Positions 4,810-18,661 of a DNA stretch of 34,397 nt are shown here, in pieces (position 1 is the stretch's first letter; each line of letters begins with the position of its first letter). The DNA lies in the IMG/VR virus record IMGVR_UViG_3300038307_000128, positions 1 to 34,397 of that record, one strand, 5' to 3'. Source of the DNA: a virus. Lineage: Duplodnaviria; Caudoviricetes. The translations under genes and the position numbers were made by a program. The notes beneath the pieces are model-generated. The model made no database searches. It was not told the DNA's origin and saw nothing but the letters and a program-made list of their open reading frames with translations.

Positions 4810-4949
4810 ATGATAAGAAACAAAAAGAAAGCGAAACTTTTAAGGCAATTGGTATGTTGATTGGATATGCTTTGGTAAATGTTACAAAGGGCGCATTCTT
4901 TGTACTCGGTGGTTACGTTGTGTTGCGATTGGTTGGTGTGTTGCAATGA
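4806..4949 (+). CDS. Small hydrophobic protein (47 aa, MNDKKQKESETFKAIGML...LVGVLQ), not in ORF track
   Basis: ATGA overlaps with both neighbours; hydrophobic C-terminal half. Confidence 0.65.
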   Translation: MNDKKQKESETFKAIGMLIGYALVNVTKGAFFVLGGYVVLRLVGVLQ

Positions 4950-5470
4950 ATGAAATAGAAACAACAATTGACAGGGGTGCCGAGTGGCGAAAGTCTGTTG
5001 AGTTAATGCAAGGTCTGTTTCCTAAATGGCAAACTTCAAATGAACAACTTCAATCGTGGAAGGAAAGATTTGGTATGTTGAATCCAGATTGGTTTCGTGA
5101 AGCATTGCATTTAACTTATCACACTTACAACAGCGACAGCCCAAAACCTAAATGGGTTGTTGAATGTTTTAGGCAAGTCAAGGCAGGGCATCAAGGTATT
5201 CCATTGACTGAGTCAGACGGTGCAACACTTCAACGCCAACAAGACCAACAAGAACAAGAGTTACATGAGTTGCAAGTTAATGCAGACAGAGAACACGCTC
5301 GCAACGAAGTTGCAACGTGGACACAAGAAGATGCAACACATTGGGCAACCTTGTTTGCAAAAAATTATAATGGTATGGTTTCTGAAAGGAATAAACTAAA
5401 CGACATAGCAACATGGTCGGACACCTTTACCCAGTTTGTTTTTGTGTTTAGGAAAATGCAGACGCAATAG
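4946..5470 (+). CDS. Hypothetical protein, possibly a helicase loader/inhibitor by position
   Basis: Translationally coupled ORF closing the replication operon; function is inference only. Confidence 0.6.
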   Translation: MNEIETTIDRGAEWRKSVELMQGLFPKWQTSNEQLQSWKERFGMLNPDWFREALHLTYHTYNSDSPKPKWVVECFRQVKAGHQGIPLTESDGATLQRQQDQQEQELHELQVNADREHARNEVATWTQEDATHWATLFAKNYNGMVSERNKLNDIATWSDTFTQFVFVFRKMQTQ

Positions 5471-5500
5471 CGAAAACAACCAACGCATTTGCTCACAATC

Positions 5501-5539
5501 AAAAACGCCCTGCACGTTCAATCGTCAGGGCGTTTTTTT
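5501..5539 (+). terminator. Intrinsic terminator, likely bidirectional
   Basis: AAAAACGCCCTG..ACG-TTCAAT-CGT-CAGGGCGTTTTTTT. Confidence 0.85.
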
Positions 5540-5627
5540 CATTTGCGTCTATATATATGTACGTGGTGCAGATTTATCTGCGTTTTTGGCGTAATAAATG
5601 CAAAAATCACGTTTTTTCGATATTTAC

Positions 5628-5657
5628 TTGCATAAATGACGATTATTGTTGTATCTT
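5628..5657 (+). promoter_or_regulatory. Putative sigma70-type early promoter
   Basis: TTGCAT (5628-5633), 18-nt spacer, TATCTT (5652-5657), just downstream of a terminator. Confidence 0.5.
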
Positions 5658-5673
5658 ATACAAATACAAATTG

Positions 5674-6103
5674 ATTCTTATCGAGTTTAGGCACTAACGG
5701 TTGGGAATGAAAAAGCCAACGAAGTACAATCACAAATCGCAAGTGGTGGTTGGAACAAAAGTCAAACAAGAATTCAAAAAAGGTTAGGCAGATTGGACAA
5801 TGACATTCAACCGCGAATCAAAGCGAAGCGAATCGAGTCAACAACTGTAACAATTTTTTTTGAGTTTGAAAGCGAACGGCGACACGTACAAGTAGCATCG
5901 AGAGAATTAACACATAGCGACAGAGATACGAATACGATAGTTGTATTCAACCCAACAAATGTAGCAACGCACTATTGCACCAAGACATTACGAGTAATTA
6001 AAAGTTACGAGTTGTAAAAGAATGTTATTTACAATCGGACAACACTTGTTAGTTGTAGTCGAGTGAACAAAGTGAAACTTGCAATTGCATAGTTGATAAG
6101 AAT
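5674..6103 (+). ncRNA. Candidate large structured non-coding RNA (~430 nt), family unassigned
   Basis: Hand-folded nested helices: 5674-5684/6093-6103, 5700-5705/5951-5956, 5770-5785/5852-5867, 5930-5948, 5972-5979/6086-6092, 6008-6037, 6043-6074; no credible ORF. Confidence 0.6.
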
Positions 6104-6147
6104 ATTGGATGCGTAAATTAAACATTCACAAACTTAGCAGGGGGATA

Positions 6148-6183
6148 AGTAACACGAGCCGAAAGGTTGGTGTTGCTATTTGT
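6148..6183 (+). terminator. GAAA-tetraloop hairpin, possible terminator or processing site after the candidate ncRNA
   Basis: AGTAACAC-G-AGCC-GAAA-GGTT-G-GTGTTGCT followed by ATTTGTT. Confidence 0.45.
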
Positions 6184-6233
6184 TAGTTAGTTAATTCACA
6201 AAAGCCGAAAGGCACAACGAAAGGAAACAAGTT

Positions 6234-6380
6234 ATGAAACTTACACAAGAACAAGTAAAAGAAATCGAAGTGGCAATCAAAGTTCTCACTGAAACACTCA
6301 GCGGTGCTAACACAGTTTCGATTGTTGCAATAGCCCAAGCACGTTTTACTTTGGAAGCAATGGTCGAAGATTTGAAGTAA
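6234..6380 (+). CDS. Small early protein (48 aa, MKLTQEQVKEIEVAIK...EDLK), not in ORF track
   Basis: GAAAGGA RBS, ATG 6234, TAA 6378-6380. Confidence 0.75.
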   Translation: MKLTQEQVKEIEVAIKVLTETLSGANTVSIVAIAQARFTLEAMVEDLK

Positions 6381-6438
6381 CTCGATTGCGAGGTGGGTTG
6401 CATTCTTCGGAGTGCAACCTTCCGCACAATTCGGTGCG
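6381..6438 (+). promoter_or_regulatory. Three tandem hairpins including a C(UUCG)G stem-loop
   Basis: CTCG-ATTG-CGAG; GGTTGCATTC-TTCG-GAGTGCAACC; CGCAC-AATTCG-GTGCG. Confidence 0.55.
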
Positions 6439-6475
6439 ACAAGAAACACAAACAATTCTTAGAAAGGATAAAACA

Positions 6476-6691
6476 ATGTTTACAGAATACACAGCAACAA
6501 TAACATACGCACCATTTGGATTAGAAGGTTTGACAATGAGCAACGTCATTGGTCGTACAAGAAAAGATGCACTTGCATTGGCAGTACAAACAATGACCGA
6601 GGTTGGCATCAGTCAAGGAATGGCAAAATGGGAAGCCGATGCAAATGCAAAGATGGCAAAGATTAGATTATCAAAAGTAAACAAACACTAA
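6476..6691 (+). CDS. Hypothetical early protein (71 aa)
   Basis: Start set by leader repeat copy 1. Confidence 0.75.
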   Translation: MFTEYTATITYAPFGLEGLTMSNVIGRTRKDALALAVQTMTEVGISQGMAKWEADANAKMAKIRLSKVNKH

Positions 6692-6716
6692 ACAATTCTT
6701 AGAAAGGAATAAAACA

Positions 6717-7151
6717 ATGATTACTAGAAAAGATTTGAACGCAATAGCAAACACACTAAACCAACGTATTCAACTTTACTTGAAGCAAGACGAGTTGGAC
6801 AAAGCAAAAGCAGTTTGGTTCACAGCAGAAAGAATGTACCACACAATGGTTTCACTAAATCCAAAAGTACAATACACAAAGTGGAAGGAAGCAGTTTGTG
6901 TTGGGTTTAGTTATAGCGAGTTGTTTGAAGACCAACGTGCAATGACTAACGCAGAATGCTTGGATACAGCAATGGCTTTGATTGATGCGGGATATGAAAT
7001 GGAAACAGTAACAATGGATGCCTTAACAACAGTTGACGAAAGTTGCCCAATAACAAGTAAGGATTGGGAAGTTGTTTTGGAACGAATGAATACATTGGAA
7101 CAGTGTGAACACTACGAAGCAATCGGACGAAAGTTAACAGAACGAAAGTAA
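6717..7151 (+). CDS. Hypothetical early protein
   Basis: Start set by leader repeat copy 2. Confidence 0.8.
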   Translation: MITRKDLNAIANTLNQRIQLYLKQDELDKAKAVWFTAERMYHTMVSLNPKVQYTKWKEAVCVGFSYSELFEDQRAMTNAECLDTAMALIDAGYEMETVTMDALTTVDESCPITSKDWEVVLERMNTLEQCEHYEAIGRKLTERK

Positions 7152-7180
7152 ACAAACAATTCTTAGAAAGGAATAAAACA

Positions 7181-7351
7181 ATGTTCGTAATAATAATAAT
7201 AAACGACAGTCATGACCCACAAGTCATAGGAACTTGGGAAACACGGAAAGAAGCAGAGCAAGCACTGCAACAGAAAAAAGATTCAATGACTGAACGAGAT
7301 TGGAAAGGCGTTACAGAAATAATGGTTACGGGAATATGGATGGTCAACTAA
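7181..7351 (+). CDS. Hypothetical early protein (56 aa, MFVIIIINDSHDPQVIGTWETRKEAE...), not in ORF track
   Basis: Start set by leader repeat copy 3; stop abuts copy 4. Confidence 0.75.
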   Translation: MFVIIIINDSHDPQVIGTWETRKEAEQALQQKKDSMTERDWKGVTEIMVTGIWMVN

Positions 7352-8902: not shown

Positions 8903-9080
8903 CGAAAAAGAAATTGGACAATTAACAGAAGCACTACATTGTACGCTTCAAATGTTAAAAGAAAAAGACCCAGAGAATGGTCATCACTTTGAAACTATGT
9001 ATCAAAGAGTAAAAGATAAATTAGAGGCAATTCAAAATTCTATTGATAAAGAAAGGGAATTAAGTAATGAAGTATCTTAA
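8883..9080 (+). CDS. Hypothetical protein
   Basis: GAAAGGA RBS. Confidence 0.7.
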   Translation: MIHVMLSEKEIGQLTEALHCTLQMLKEKDPENGHHFETMYQRVKDKLEAIQNSIDKERELSNEVS

Positions 9081-9228
9081 ATGGATATGGGAATTGGTAA
9101 ATGATTTGGCAGGGGCTTTAACACAAAGCGGATACGTTGAAGTATTGCCAGATGATAAAGACAAACACCGAGAAGATTATTTTGAAGGTGTTAGAAAAGA
9201 GTTAGAACAGTTAGAAGAAAACAAGTAA
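9067..9228 (+). CDS. Hypothetical protein (53 aa, MKYLKWIWEL...), not in ORF track
   Basis: AAAGGGA RBS, overlap with upstream gene. Confidence 0.65.
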   Translation: MKYLKWIWELVNDLAGALTQSGYVEVLPDDKDKHREDYFEGVRKELEQLEENK

Positions 9229-9257
9229 GCGTTTTACTTGTTACAGAAATTAGTATG

Positions 9258-9293
9258 GGGCTTGGTTACGTGGTGTAGCCAAGTCCTTTGTTT
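9258..9293 (+). terminator. Hairpin, possible weak terminator
   Basis: GGGCTTGGTTAC-GTGGT-GTAGCCAAGTCC then TTTGTTT. Confidence 0.55.
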
Positions 9294-9312
9294 ATGAAAG
9301 GACAAAAATATT

Positions 9313-11110: not shown

Positions 11111-11307
11111 GTAATATGAGTTACTGTAGATTTGAAAATACAACAAAGGATATGTGGGAATGTATTGATGCACTAGAAGAAGCAGATTGGAATATGGATA
11201 GTCTGAAACTAGATGCTTCAGAATATGAGCAACCCGCAATGGACAGGTTTATAAAACTGTGCAGACGAGTTGTAAAGGTTATGGGTGAAACAGATGAGCA
11301 AACTTAA
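11107..11307 (+). CDS. Hypothetical phage protein (NMSYCRFENT type)
   Basis: N-terminal MSNMSYCRFENT motif; TAGAAAGGA RBS. Confidence 0.75.
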   Translation: MSNMSYCRFENTTKDMWECIDALEEADWNMDSLKLDASEYEQPAMDRFIKLCRRVVKVMGETDEQT

Positions 11308-11491
11308 TGAAGTAGAAAAGACAATGATTGAGATTGCTTATGACAGTTGGTTATTTGCAGTTGCTACTCACCAAGACAATGAACTCATTGCTCACCACGC
11401 TAAACGATTCAAGTATCTTATTGATTGGATTGGTACAACATTAGAAATAGAAACTGAAAGGAAGCAAGATGGTTTGAATATATTGGCATAG
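11294..11491 (+). CDS. Hypothetical protein
   Basis: Overlapping ORF before the terminator. Confidence 0.6.
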   Translation: MSKLNEVEKTMIEIAYDSWLFAVATHQDNELIAHHAKRFKYLIDWIGTTLEIETERKQDGLNILA

Positions 11492-11516
11492 TAAATGGTG
11501 ATGGAATAGATTGAGG

Positions 11517-11558
11517 AAGCCCTCGTACAACTTAAATGTTGTGCGGGGGTTTTTTTTT
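11517..11558 (+). terminator. Strong intrinsic terminator ending the early operon
   Basis: CCCTCGTACAAC-TTAAAT-GTTGTGCGGGGG followed by 9 T. Confidence 0.9.
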
Positions 11559-11614
11559 GGTTTACACCTACTCGGACGGTCACAAAAGATACGATATTAG
11601 TTAGAGCGTATTAA

Positions 11615-14056: not shown

Positions 14057-14608
14057 ATGAACACAAAAAAAACAAAGTTAACCGAGTTAGTTTTTGATAA
14101 TGAAAACGCAAGACGGCACAGCGAAGAAAATAAGTTTGCAGTTAAAACTTCACTTGAAAAGTACGGTCAGCAAAAACCAATTGTAATAAACGAAGACAAG
14201 AAAATCATTGCGGGAAACTGCACTGCGGTTGTTGCAAAAGAACTTGGTTGGGAAACCGTTGATACGGTTACAACAAAATTGACCGCCGAACAAGCGACTG
14301 CGTATGCAATTGCTGATAATAGAACGAGCGAGTTGGGTGAATGGGAAGGCGATGTCTTAAAGTTCTTGGTTGAGTCAAATGAAATAGATTTAGATTCAAT
14401 TGGTTTTGACGTTGACTCCTTTAACATTGCGACAGGGGAAATGAGTTGGGATGAAGAAGATAGACCAAATGTGGACGAAGAAGTGCAGGTGCCTACAGTT
14501 AAAATACAACTATCGCTTACTGATTGGGGCAGAAAACAAGAAGTAATAGATGCGATTAGTAATATGATTTATGATAATAGTTGGGGAGATTTTTTAGAAA
14601 TCAAATGA
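14057..14608 (+). CDS. ParB-like N-terminal domain protein
   Basis: NARRH, SL.KYGQQKPIV, IIAGN, AYAIADNR.SEL.EW. Confidence 0.9.
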   Translation: MNTKKTKLTELVFDNENARRHSEENKFAVKTSLEKYGQQKPIVINEDKKIIAGNCTAVVAKELGWETVDTVTTKLTAEQATAYAIADNRTSELGEWEGDVLKFLVESNEIDLDSIGFDVDSFNIATGEMSWDEEDRPNVDEEVQVPTVKIQLSLTDWGRKQEVIDAISNMIYDNSWGDFLEIK

Positions 14609-15606
14609 TGCCGTTCCCTAATATCTTGGCGTCCTATGCGTATTGCAGAAACAATAAAAAGTTTACGGATACGCTTTGTAAAATTGTCAAAGATGAAAGC
14701 ACGAACTTGCTAATAGATTCGGGAGCATATACCGCTTTTAAGATTGGCAAGCATATAGATATAGATGATTACATCGACTACATTAAATTGCTAAACGATT
14801 GTGGTGGTGCTTGGAATTATATTCAGTTAGATGTAATTGGAAATAAAGAAGCAACATGGAAAAATCTTGACTATATGTATGCAAAAAATGTAAAGCCGAT
14901 GCCAGTGCTTACAGTAGATATGGAATCTAGCGTTGCAAAGGGTTACATGGATTACAACGATTTTATCTGCATAGCAGGCGGTCAAAGAAGTTGGACTGGT
15001 GCAAAGCAATGGCAATGGAAGCGAGCGAATGAAGTAAATAAATTAACCGAAGGAAAAGCACGCTCACATTTTCTCGCTTTTTTGCAAATACCCGACTTGT
15101 ATGATTTGCCTCTGGAGTCAGCCGATGCTTCAACTTGGTTGGCAGGACAGCAATACTCAAGGATAGCGTGTTATATATCTGGCGGCAAAATGACTGGTTC
15201 GGATTTTTGGTTCAAAAAAAAATATCTTCCAAAAAATAAACTTGGCGAGCATCTAGTCAGGCATCTTGACAGAGATAAGATAACAAAAACTATTTGGAGA
15301 GATAAGTCGATAATGGCAACTGGTGGTGCATCTTACTGTTCTCTTAAAACAGCAACTTCGTTTGTTGCACTTTGCAATGATGCGAGAAAACGTAGTCGGC
15401 AAGTTTTTTTAGTAACGTCTAGTTCGCATGATATCGATAGTTTATATGTAGCATCGAAGTATGGTGATGATAAGGGCTACTTGGATTACTTCGGTGCAAA
15501 AGTTGAGTTTGATAAACTAAGAGCGTTAAGAAAAAACGATTTTAACAAATGGCAACGATATGTAACTGATGGAATAAAAGAATTGGGTGAAGTTAAACGA
15601 GATTAA
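14605..15606 (+). CDS. dpdA: DpdA-like DNA 7-deazaguanine transglycosylase (TGT fold)
   Basis: LIDSGAYT, I.ID.YI.YI, QLDVIG...T..N...M, PMPV, IAGG, H.L, S.D.STW; adjacent to queC/D/E and folE. Confidence 0.75.
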   Translation: MMPFPNILASYAYCRNNKKFTDTLCKIVKDESTNLLIDSGAYTAFKIGKHIDIDDYIDYIKLLNDCGGAWNYIQLDVIGNKEATWKNLDYMYAKNVKPMPVLTVDMESSVAKGYMDYNDFICIAGGQRSWTGAKQWQWKRANEVNKLTEGKARSHFLAFLQIPDLYDLPLESADASTWLAGQQYSRIACYISGGKMTGSDFWFKKKYLPKNKLGEHLVRHLDRDKITKTIWRDKSIMATGGASYCSLKTATSFVALCNDARKRSRQVFLVTSSSHDIDSLYVASKYGDDKGYLDYFGAKVEFDKLRALRKNDFNKWQRYVTDGIKELGEVKRD

Positions 15607-15610
15607 ATAT

Positions 15611-16189
15611 ATGAAAAACAAAAAAGTATTACTTTACAGTGGTGGTTTGGATAGTTGGTTGATAGATAAATTGTGGAAACCAGATGTAAAACTTCATCTA
15701 AAAATTGGCACAATGCAGAATGAGATAGAGTCATCAATCTTGCCCAAGGATGTAATTGTAAAAAAAATAAAGTTAGACGAGTATGTAATTGACGATGGCA
15801 TAGTTACAATACCGCTACGAAACTTAATTTTTCTTTGCTTGGCGGTGAACTACGGAAATGTGATTTGTCTTGGTGGAACAGCAGACGACTTGCACTATGA
15901 CAAGACATTGGGATTTATTAAAGATTCAGAAAACCTTTTCAATAGTGTCTTGAGTAAAGAAAAAAACGATAAAGATTTTAGCCAAAACATTAAAATTGTA
16001 ATGCCTTGGAAAGAGAAAACAAAAATACAAATACTAAAGCAATATATTGACGAAGGTGGTGATGCGAGAAGTGCGTACAAAAGTTCGTTTAGTTGTCACT
16101 TTCCAAAAAATAAAAAGGAATGCTGTGAATGTATCGCCTGTATTAAAAAGATAAACGCCTTTAAGGAAGTTGGATATGATTTTAGTTGA
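15611..16189 (+). CDS. queC: 7-cyano-7-deazaguanine synthase (short phage form)
   Basis: LLYSGGLDS PP-loop, IPLRNLIFL, SFSC...ECCECIAC Zn site. Confidence 0.85.
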   Translation: MKNKKVLLYSGGLDSWLIDKLWKPDVKLHLKIGTMQNEIESSILPKDVIVKKIKLDEYVIDDGIVTIPLRNLIFLCLAVNYGNVICLGGTADDLHYDKTLGFIKDSENLFNSVLSKEKNDKDFSQNIKIVMPWKEKTKIQILKQYIDEGGDARSAYKSSFSCHFPKNKKECCECIACIKKINAFKEVGYDFS

Positions 16190-17030
16190 TGCAATAGCAA
16201 TAGTGGGAACAGGGAATGTTGGAAGTTGTATTGCCTCTTTGATAGTATCAAAAGAAATATGCAACAAGTTATACCTAGTTTCGTCTACTGACAATACTAC
16301 TTCGGTTGAAGGTGTGCTTTGCGACTTGATGGGTAATTCTTCAGACATAGATATTGCAGTTGCGGGTTACAAAGAAGTTCAAAATGTTGACTTGGTAATT
16401 GTATGTTCTGGGATTGCTCAAAAAGAAAAGCAAAGCAGAAATGATTTGCTTGATGAGAACAAGAAAATAGTAAAAAAAATTGGCGATGAGTTAAAAAAAA
16501 TAAAATACAACAAGCGGGTTATAGTTGTGACTAATCCTGTGGACATCTCATCGTATTTATTGCAGAGGCAGTCGCAAATAAATTGTAAAAAAATAATAGG
16601 CGTTGGTACACTTATAGACCAAAATCGGCTCAGAAATATATGTAAAAAGAATATAGATATAGGCGAAGCAAAAATAGTTGGGGAGCATGGAGATTCAATG
16701 GTTTTAATACGAGCATCTAAAAAAAAGTTTTCAAGAGTTTTTGGAAAAGTTAAAAATCTTGTCTATGAAATTATTGACAAAAAAAAAGTAAGCAACTTGG
16801 GTATTGGTTTTACAGTAATTGAGTTAATAGAAAAATTGTTTTCGCCTTGTGTTTGCTGTGCGGTGCCATTTAGTTGTTATGACTATGAGCATGGCATATA
16901 CATTAGCAATCTGTACGACATCGGAAACAATAAAATTGAAAAGGTTAGTCATGTCTTATCAAAGCAAGAACAGCGAAGTTTTGACTTGAGCGTAGATGCA
17001 ATAAAGAAACAGATAGAAGAATGCGATTGA
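16176..17030 (+). CDS. L-lactate/malate dehydrogenase-family oxidoreductase
   Basis: IVGTGNVG, CSG..QK..QSR.DL...N, VVTNPVD, GTLID..R, GEHGDS. Confidence 0.9.
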   Translation: MILVDAIAIVGTGNVGSCIASLIVSKEICNKLYLVSSTDNTTSVEGVLCDLMGNSSDIDIAVAGYKEVQNVDLVIVCSGIAQKEKQSRNDLLDENKKIVKKIGDELKKIKYNKRVIVVTNPVDISSYLLQRQSQINCKKIIGVGTLIDQNRLRNICKKNIDIGEAKIVGEHGDSMVLIRASKKKFSRVFGKVKNLVYEIIDKKKVSNLGIGFTVIELIEKLFSPCVCCAVPFSCYDYEHGIYISNLYDIGNNKIEKVSHVLSKQEQRSFDLSVDAIKKQIEECD

Positions 17031-17058
17031 AAAAACAATTACCAAAAAGGAAACAAAA

Positions 17059-17475
17059 ATGATTTCTTGTACTAGGAAACTTTGGTTCTGTGCAGGGCAT
17101 AGAGTAAAAGGACATGAAGGGAAATGCAGACACCTTCACGGTCATAACTACATTGTCTACATAACAGCACAAGCAAGTTTAGATTCGATTGGTAGAGTTA
17201 TTGACTTTAGTGTATTGAAGGAACAGTTTGGTTCGTTTATTGATGACAACTTCGACCACGGTTTCCTTGTTTGGGAAGATGACAAGGAAGTGATTGATGT
17301 ACTAAAGAACATGGGTGAGCAAAAGGTATTTGTAATGCCAACAAACCCAACAGCAGAAAACATTGCACAATTCTTGTTAGATAACAGCGATGATATTCTC
17401 GACAACAAAGGAGTTGAAGTTACGATGGTAAAAGTATATGAAACAGAAAATTGCTTTGCGGTGGCAACACGATGA
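17059..17475 (+). CDS. queD: 6-carboxytetrahydropterin synthase
   Basis: F.AGHR...H.GKCRHLHGHNY, VIDF, FDH, NPTAEN, VYET. Confidence 0.95.
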   Translation: MISCTRKLWFCAGHRVKGHEGKCRHLHGHNYIVYITAQASLDSIGRVIDFSVLKEQFGSFIDDNFDHGFLVWEDDKEVIDVLKNMGEQKVFVMPTNPTAENIAQFLLDNSDDILDNKGVEVTMVKVYETENCFAVATR

Positions 17476-18107
17476 AGGGGTACTGGGTAAGCGAAATCTT
17501 TTACTCGTTGCAAGGTGAAGGCGTAAGGTCTGGTACTGCAAATGTTTTTGTGAGGTTCAAAGGTTGCAACTTAGAGTGTGCAATGGAAGAAGGCGAAAAG
17601 TCAATAGGTGGGTTTGACTGTGATACCGAGTTTGAGTCAGGTATTAAGATGTCGCCTCACGACTTGATGGATGCTTGTGAAGCAATGGTTGTAAAGCAAA
17701 CGAATAGTAACCACGTTCAGTTCAATGTAATCTTTACTGGTGGTGAACCTGCAATTCAATTGGACAAAGAATTAGTTTCAATGTTCAAGGAGAGTGGTTG
17801 GTATACAGCAATAGAAACAAATGGAAGCATGGACGTTTCAGATTTAGGTTTAGATTGGATTACAGTTTCGCCAAAGGTTGCGGAGCATTGCGTAAGACAA
17901 CTAACAGCAGACGAAGTAAAATATGTCAGAGGCAACCTGCAAGGAATACCTAAACCAAAGTGCAAGGCGAAGAACAAAGTTATATCTCCTGCGTTTAATG
18001 GTTTAGAAAAAAACCAAGATGCTGTTCTTTGGTGCATCGAATTAGTAAAGCAAAATCCAGATTGGCAACTAAGTGTGCAAGACCATAAGTTATGGAGAAT
18101 AAGGTAA
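17472..18107 (+). CDS. queE: 7-carboxy-7-deazaguanine synthase (radical SAM)
   Basis: EIFYSLQGEG, FVRFKGCNL.C...CDT, TGGEP, IETNG, WITVSPK, LSVQ.HK. Confidence 0.95.
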   Translation: MKGYWVSEIFYSLQGEGVRSGTANVFVRFKGCNLECAMEEGEKSIGGFDCDTEFESGIKMSPHDLMDACEAMVVKQTNSNHVQFNVIFTGGEPAIQLDKELVSMFKESGWYTAIETNGSMDVSDLGLDWITVSPKVAEHCVRQLTADEVKYVRGNLQGIPKPKCKAKNKVISPAFNGLEKNQDAVLWCIELVKQNPDWQLSVQDHKLWRIR

Positions 18108-18661
18108 TGAGTATAGGCGAAGAAGGTATTAGAGATTTACTTATTGAGATTGGACAAGACCCTGAAAGGGAAGGCATTGTTGATACACCAAAGCGAGTTG
18201 TAAAAGCAATGAAAGAAATGACTGCGGGTTATAACCAAAGCCCAAAAGAAATACTGAGTAGACAATTTGAAGGTGATAACTACGATGACTTAGTTATTGT
18301 GAGAGGTATTAGGTTTGCTTCCTTATGTGAACACCACCTCTTGCCTTTTGTTGGAACTTGTGCAGTTGGGTATTTGCCAAGAATAAAAGTTGTTGGCTTG
18401 TCAAAGTTGCCAAGGCTTGTTGAGTGTTATTCTAAACGGTTACAACTTCAAGAAAGAATGACTAGGCAGATAGCCAATGCGGTAATGATTCACTTAATGC
18501 CTAGAGGCGTTGGAGTTTATGTGCAAGCGACTCATCAATGCATGGCTTGCAGAGGTGCAAGACAACCCGATGCTGATATGGTTACAACAACTGTACTTGG
18601 GGAGATGCGAGAAAATCCTTCGCTCAAGTCTGAGTTTATTCAGGCGGTGCATCATGGATAG
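18107..18661 (+). CDS. folE: GTP cyclohydrolase I
   Basis: REG..DTPKRV, SLCEHHLLPF, GLSKL.R, RLQLQER, H.CM.CRG. Confidence 0.97.
   Translation: MSIGEEGIRDLLIEIGQDPEREGIVDTPKRVVKAMKEMTAGYNQSPKEILSRQFEGDNYDDLVIVRGIRFASLCEHHLLPFVGTCAVGYLPRIKVVGLSKLPRLVECYSKRLQLQERMTRQIANAVMIHLMPRGVGVYVQATHQCMACRGARQPDADMVTTTVLGEMRENPSLKSEFIQAVHHG

Follow-up and report, generated by a model that had tools for sequence, protein, structure and literature searches.

The locus and its limits

The window, by which the whole analysed stretch of 34,397 nt is meant, is a 34.4-kb virus record that is 43% complete. It encodes Sak4, SSB and a replisome organiser-like protein upstream of the element described here, a 7-deazaguanine cluster and an HK97-type head-tail module. 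The 7-deazaguanine DNA-modification cluster (14581-18661) comprises tRNA-ribosyltransferase-like, QueC, QueD, QueE and GTP cyclohydrolase genes. The best terminase matches (43-46%) are to gut Bacillota phage records, and the Sak4 matches stay below 36%. Parts of the window are present at 99% identity or more in runs X2 and X3 (the possible source run X1 was left out), and relatives that are 90-99% identical to it are present in runs X4, X5, X6, X8 and X13; all of these runs are seawater or marine metagenomes from separate studies. Contigs were compared from 8 of the 24 runs listed for the window, the other 16 holding small shares of it, and parts without coverage in the compared contigs were not counted as absence. 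No RNA run is among these 24, which bear on expression neither way.

Behind the replication module lies a stretch of 712 nt (5471-6182), the largest in the window without ORFs of at least 80 aa; the preliminary description had likewise placed the largest gap here. Two further stretches lack such ORFs (8903-9312 and 11111-11614) and have strong terminator-like hairpins at 9257-9287 and 11513-11556. The features of the locus are listed here; carriers and non-carriers are related loci with and without the RNA, and clades A and B are introduced below.

4946..5470, + strand: gene for a 174-aa protein that closes the replication module; a constant upstream marker whether or not the RNA is present
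5514..5533, + strand: predicted terminator-like hairpin with T run, which would insulate the promoter from the replication operon
5628..5657, + strand: predicted sigma-70-type early promoter (-35-like 5628-5633, 18-nt spacer, -10-like 5652-5657)
5665..6178, + strand: conserved structured RNA including its 3' hairpin, about 510 nt
5671-6179, + strand: unit missing from the empty allele (run X14 contig)
6148..6184, + strand: terminator-like hairpin (6148-6177) and its T tail, weak in clade A, T5 in clade B
6204..6236, + strand: early-gene leader with a small GNRA hairpin, a GAAAGGA ribosome-binding site and the start of the first small gene (6234-6380)

The unit is put at about 510 nt because conservation runs from 7 nt behind the -10-like hexamer, where the first conserved column lies in 9/9 sequences, to the hairpin at 6148-6177. 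A structured RNA had earlier been proposed at 5674-6103, beginning some 15 nt after a promoter-like element. The RNA and this spacing were borne out (the -10-like box ends 16 nt before 5674), but the limits were too narrow, and the 3' 75 nt with the terminator-like hairpin had been missed. The predicted promoter was not picked up by a consensus scan of the window; at the same place the non-carrier L091 has TTGACA-17-CAATAT. In L087, another non-carrier, an ATG stands 7 nt after a TATAAT box (~5005-5020), which suggests a leaderless first gene and would support the estimated start point of the RNA. At the other end, a 14-bp hairpin with a T run precedes the first gene in all 4 clade B members that reach that far, while terminator scans left the weak-tailed hairpin of clade A unflagged. 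No second promoter was seen upstream of 6234, by eye or by scan. The leader at 6204-6236 occurs in non-carriers too. The 174-aa protein has no PHROG family, and its 17 other relatives come from metagenome-type sources and bear no functional name.

Homologues and the conserved fold

The 5' block shared with the window was first seen across otherwise divergent marine contigs. An 18-letter scan of metagenome contigs gave 15 loci, which nhmmer divided into 8 true homologues and 7 chance matches, and five DNA-pattern scans of viral contigs recovered only the same two carrier contigs (2/2, 2/36, 2/2, 2/13 and 2/12). BLAST searches yielded just 1 and 5 short chance matches in a phage collection and none in plasmids. 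Among GTDB genomes the RNA motif had 0 matches and the upstream 174-aa protein 0 out of 20 candidates, and a covariance model of the 5' domain revealed no third clade in 16 related records. Clade A consists of the window, L056 and L047 (partial), with 94-95% identity; L056 has the same sequence as two IMG/VR carriers. Clade B consists of L046, L049, L050, L051, L053 and L059, which are 77-99% identical to each other and 56-62% to clade A. Since L051/L059 and L050/L053 are near-duplicate pairs (97-99%), the comparative set of 9 sequences (the window and 8 homologues) amounts to only two clades and about seven haplotypes. Between the clades the overall nucleotide identity of the RNA (0.585-0.595) hardly exceeds the value for the upstream gene (0.56-0.58), and the longest invariant run is 32 nt in the RNA versus 6 nt in the gene. 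Among the 6 full-length members 234 of 526 columns are invariant.

The checks proposed for the structured RNA included folding energy against shuffles and a comparison of homologues. The first gave no support: the window stretch alone reached a folding z of -1.15 on the + strand, with 12/100 shuffles as good, and of -0.63 on the - strand. As the window alone folds no better than shuffles, the case rests on the homologues. Over 79 anchored pairs (673 cells) 98.5% of the cells are paired and 25 pairs show two-sided changes, compared to 35-42% paired and 0-4 two-sided when partners are slid by 1-3; the helix list was chosen on the same 9 sequences, and the shuffle controls that follow ignore relatedness. 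With unedited MAFFT alignments, clade B alone was 97.4% paired and had 8 two-sided pairs versus 3.2±1.2 (0/500 shuffles), even though L046 breaks 7 rod pairs in a region that it aligns poorly, and the cross-clade blocks had 7 versus 3.0 (0/500 shuffles). A blind helix scan found 26 helices versus 11±5 (0/200 shuffles) and 7 two-sided pairs versus 1.0 (1/200). On the reverse strand the same scan counted 24 helices, with 7 two-sided pairs, and folding z-scores favour the plus strand in 4 of the 6 full-length members and the minus strand in 2. The reverse-strand signal being comparable, the strand call rests on the orientation of promoter and terminator and on 76 G-U cells. The reading frame at 5793-6017, which might have been the conserved entity instead, has no PHROG match and is broken in 7/8 homologues, open in L056 only. 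A large RNA under selection for structure, its fold kept across two distant clades, is well supported by these comparisons, in line with the proposal of RNA-level selection on the + strand behind the promoter.

The fold model was built from single-sequence folds, RNAalifold on clade B and an anchored clade-to-clade comparison, and contains the following elements.

5671..5910, + strand: 5' domain closed by P1 (5671-5679/5902-5910), paired in 9/9, with wobble-type changes only
5681-84/5898-5901, + strand: extension of P1 in clade A
5689..5720, + strand: 32-nt invariant block with hairpin P3 (5700-04/5716-20) and its 11-nt purine-rich loop
5727..5752, + strand: hairpin P4, 4/5 anchored pairs two-sided; longer and branched in clade B
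5770..5867, + strand: long arm P5 with the invariant loop 5815-5822 at its tip
5879..5887, + strand: 3-bp triloop hairpin (RNAalifold), one pair two-sided in L046
5891-5898/6022-6029, + strand: predicted long-range pseudoknot or kissing pair, 8 bp in 9/9
5943..6105, + strand: 3' domain, a long irregular rod ending in hairpin P10 (6009-6036)
6106..6128, + strand: hairpin P11 with a conserved 11-nt A-rich loop, 3/4 anchored pairs two-sided

P3, P4, P5, P10, the rod and the triloop hairpin fall on identical anchors whether a clade A member or the clade B consensus is folded. P10 is the clearest case, having conserved words on both sides while 6/7 pairs changed two-sidedly between the clades, and its loop carries the strand 6022-6029 of the predicted pseudoknot. 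That pairing was also found by the blind scan; it has three one-sided changes between the clades and none that is two-sided. A third form of P4 was read off a loose end in run X13. The ends of the RNA fold differently: in clade A P1 is extended, and in clade B there are P2 and a 5'/3' helix in competition with P11. Several strands have two conserved partners each; for instance, 5671-77 can pair with 5904-10 or, within the invariant loop of P5 (5815-5822, complementary to the RNA's own 5' end at 5671-5677), with 5815-21, and 5943-48 with 5930-35 or 6100-05. These double-partner strands may represent folding intermediates or contacts between copies. Of 230 unpaired positions, 123 are A and 109 are invariant. 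Two early candidates, a T-loop at 5872-5880 and a GUC/GAC helix, were dropped as incompatible with the triloop hairpin, one pair of which changed two-sidedly.

About half of the hand-drawn fold in the preliminary description proved wrong. Its quoted sequences lie where it placed them, and its 16-bp helix with four G-U pairs (5770-5785/5852-5867) was confirmed and is kept by the homologues together with the GCAG and TTG extensions, as is the hairpin near 6009-6036 (then drawn at 6008-6037). Its GCAA-loop hairpin (5728-5751) survives as a hairpin at 5727-5752, with the register 5733-5746 and a compensatory change of C-G to U-A. Other elements were lost to sequence variation. The proposed closing pair GTTGGG/CCCAAC is G.G in L056 and 4 runs, the invariant partner being 5716-5720; GTAC/GTAC is A.C in 4 runs as well as in L056 and L047; in the loop-E motif, GCC or AAG replaces the GAA half in 3/6 clade B members; the pseudoknot 5746-54/5806-14 is broken in L047, L056 and runs X4, X5, X6 and X8; the closing stem 5674-84/6093-6103 is A.C in X8 and X13 (unphased) and absent in clade B; and CTAT/ATAG is U.U in X8 and X13. 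Of 16 pairs touched by run variants, 8 stayed paired in the hand-drawn fold; in the comparative model, which was fitted with the variants in view, 15/17 did so, and variants on separate contigs cannot be phased. The pseudoknot 5891-98/6022-29 and the optional nature of the unit were both absent from the earlier drawing.

Presence and absence among related phages

Carriers that reach far enough share one order, namely replication gene, promoter, RNA, hairpin, GAAAGGA leader and small genes that mostly differ; clade B carriers have one more ORF between the replication gene and the promoter. The first downstream gene differs among 5/6 full-length carriers (the window and L046 share one). Seven viral loci have the upstream protein: 2 carry the RNA, in 4 the promoter leads straight into the leader or start codon, and 1 ends too soon. 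The non-carriers L087, L088 and L090 are without the RNA at this slot, L087 and L088 being near-duplicates. L091 is 94-98% identical to the carrier L051 over ~2 kb up to the start point, then diverges and has no RNA; its empty site does not resume the 3' flank of the carrier. The 5'-domain model matches 2/16 related records and 0/4 of the records that are at least 90% complete. A contig of run X14 (a single record, depth 4.6) joins the clade A promoter end directly to 6180. The joint amounts to the loss of 5671-6179, with TTG at either end (3-nt microhomology), so that the RNA and the hairpin leave together. Two other joints, at 5726/6142 (run X4) and 5679/6197 (run X6), span the RNA, the sequence in between being unknown; they reflect either additional alleles that are empty or shortened, or a clade that has diverged further.

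Neighbouring slots vary as well. Upstream of the promoter, a nuclease-like ORF of ~160 aa was recognized by eye in L046, L050, L051, L053, L059 and L091, two non-carrier lineages have a different ORF of 125-134 aa there (L087 4525-4929; L090 4503-4880), and in clade A the slot is empty. Early genes of carriers and non-carriers alike are preceded by a second, small element, intergenic, whose ends are fixed and whose central hairpin varies (18-70 nt); copies lie at 6386-6445 in the window, at 3055 in L046 (reverse strand), at 2276 in L050 and at 5463 and 5839 in L091. It is possibly a small new cis-regulatory RNA motif; Rfam gave only freshwater-2 at E 6.6 for the window copy and nothing for L091. 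A 30-nt leader with a ribosome-binding site is repeated almost exactly in the window (~6447-6478, 6689-6719 and 7153-7183), and such repeats could drive cassette shuffling among relatives. The idea that the RNA pairs with these recurring leaders was rejected, such pairing being inconsistent across clade B by eye.

Possible roles and comparison with known RNAs

The reading that we favour, at a probability of about 0.55, is that the RNA belongs to a new family of large, pseudoknotted, stand-alone phage RNAs, carried as optional early cargo and likely serving as a decoy or scaffold. Its dispensability, the changing downstream genes, the 32-nt invariant block and the A-rich loops favour a stand-alone product over gene-specific control. 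The RNA would be the first product transcribed from the predicted early promoter and would be released at 6178 by its own leaky terminator, with partial read-through feeding the small early genes. The 5891/6022 pseudoknot would compact the two domains, and the invariant A-rich loops may form a binding surface, possibly between copies as in the ROOL and GOLLD cages. While the host is being taken over, the RNA would act in trans, serving as decoy or scaffold. Since it stands first in an exchangeable series of small early genes, our guess is that its target is most likely a host RNA-binding or defence protein. A bolder version, which is speculative and improbable, sees an RNA-only phage effector of 510 nt, made before any early protein and swapped like an anti-defence gene. 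It would assemble with itself through invariant loops (5815-5822 with the 5' end of another copy), and its pseudoknot loop would set terminator read-through, coupling folding to early-gene expression.

The main alternative is that the RNA is a cis-acting attenuator or riboswitch-like leader, in which segment 2 (6022-6031), from the P10 loop, has two possible partners. Bound to segment 1 (5891-5898) it would let the terminator form; bound to segment 3 (6146-6154, at the 5' base of the terminator) it would permit read-through into the early genes, and a ligand or protein would pick the state. This is unlikely but deserves to be taken seriously. The pairing of segments 2 and 3, detected in the blind scan, spans 9 bp in 6/6 sequences, 6 of its pairs being variable, and obstructs the hairpin base. 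The terminator is part of the cassette, no second promoter is seen before 6234, and a terminator between promoter and early genes fits an attenuator equally well. In addition, a 456-nt leader with an attenuator has been published for pLS20 (PMC13401043). However, the 2:3 pairing is not above its shuffle control (201/500), and its duplex (-5.6 to -9.1 kcal/mol) is weaker than the hairpin (-14 to -18). The downstream genes are mostly unrelated between carriers, close relatives run the same slot without the leader, and most of the invariant bases belong to the 5' domain, at a distance from the switch. The zipper-type attenuator of pLS20, cATT, resembles the marine-phage locus in its leader of ~450-500 nt from promoter to first gene, its long imperfect stem, its 3' terminator and an upstream segment complementary to the 5' arm of the terminator (PMC13401043). 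At the marine-phage locus that segment sits at the tip of the rod and not at its base, which leaves no zipper extension; moreover, no conAn-type gene follows, the energies are unbalanced and the element is dispensable in relatives.

A processive antiterminator like put, EAR or conAn2, in which RNA polymerase, bound by the emerging transcript, is taken past the 6148 hairpin and later terminators, appears quite improbable. As with HK022 putL, the RNA stands directly after the early promoter, at the very start of the early transcript, and is followed by a pause or termination site, in this case a terminator-like site directly 3' of it; put is a ~70-nt RNA with two stems (PMC9378689), against ~510 nt for the marine-phage RNA. 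Carriers show no excess of downstream terminators for an antiterminator to overcome: terminator-like sites other than the RNA's own number 0, 2, 0, 1, 1 and 0 in carriers (1.1-3.6 kb) versus 1, 2 and 1 in non-carriers (3.5-3.6 kb). Furthermore, the cassette brings its own terminator, and the empty allele loses both.

Still less probable is a catalytic or selfish RNA, either a ribozyme processing the early transcript or an intron-like element spreading into early promoters. Clean presence and absence, the microhomology at the junction in one contig and the 234/526 invariant columns would suit it, and large ornate RNAs are often catalytic (PMC5737381). Against it, Rfam shows no match to an intron, RNase P, tmRNA or self-cleaving ribozyme, the junctions, judged by eye, misfit the group I and II splice-site rules, and the element is found at one slot in one phage group only, with an L091 empty site that does not have the carrier 3' flank. 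That there is no functional RNA at all, but a DNA element (origin or packaging site) or the small 5793-6017 gene, is scarcely tenable: the folding z of only -1.15, the open frame in L056 and the replication module just upstream are outweighed by the broken frame in 7/8 homologues without PHROG match, the G-U-tolerant two-sided changes in 25 pairs and a complete relative that lacks the element.

The preliminary description had offered the GOLLD/ROOL class or a new family as alternatives, and the searches speak for the latter. Rfam 15 found nothing at gathering score in the window (11 chance-level matches at E≤10) and no match at E≤1 in 4 clade B loci. The GOLLD model (RF02032, conserved 3' domain) had 0 matches at E≤10 and the ROOL model (RF03087) none either, the control sequence for the ROOL search also matching nowhere. 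Neither ARAGORN nor Rfam gave a signature of tmRNA, RNase P, group I or II introns, T-box or known riboswitches, and 0 tRNA genes were found in the window and the 8 carrier loci, most of which are short. Resemblances to cobalamin, T-box, RNase P and tmRNA motifs had no Rfam support. A new family of the ROOL/GOLLD size class that is a member of neither is, by the tests run, well supported. Large ornate RNAs of bacteria and phages are few, and those with a known job tend toward unusual chemistry or large assemblies. To our knowledge ROOL and GOLLD still have no assigned function. In the literature searched, which left most subscription papers outside, no description of the RNA family was met, and four motif strings occurred in 0 papers. 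The viral structured-RNA candidates of PMC10690425, in the part available, are at most 151 nt long, and a fragment of the marine-phage RNA may be among them.

The sources on ROOL (PMC5737381; PMC12286853) describe a phage-carried RNA of 581 nt on average, close to the ~510 nt found here, with multiple stems, pseudoknots and A-rich conserved loops, whose function is unknown. Both ROOL and GOLLD form RNA-only homo-oligomeric cages (PMC12286853). At the level of description, ROOL has six multistem junctions as well as three pseudoknots, compared to one supported pseudoknot and two invariant candidates in the marine-phage RNA, and few highly conserved bases, in contrast to the 32-nt invariant block. 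GOLLD (RF02032) is likewise a large ornate RNA of phages and prophages with known marine members (PMC12286853), but its 800-nt form is longer, and its 3' part is the most conserved whereas here it is the 5' part. ROOL and GOLLD often lie beside tRNA genes, while the marine-phage RNA has no tRNA neighbours in the sampled loci. Unlike ROOL, as these sources portray it, the RNA belongs to a marine phage group, stands at the start of an early transcript and forms an optional cassette with its own terminator. With it, the ROOL/GOLLD size class gains a new fold, found in circumstances that those RNAs lack: near-identical phage pairs with and without the RNA, precise natural boundaries and two clades for a usable covariation model. 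These properties suit it directly to cryo-EM, SHAPE and in vitro termination assays, and the family offers a way to ask whether large RNAs serve phages as optional early effectors.
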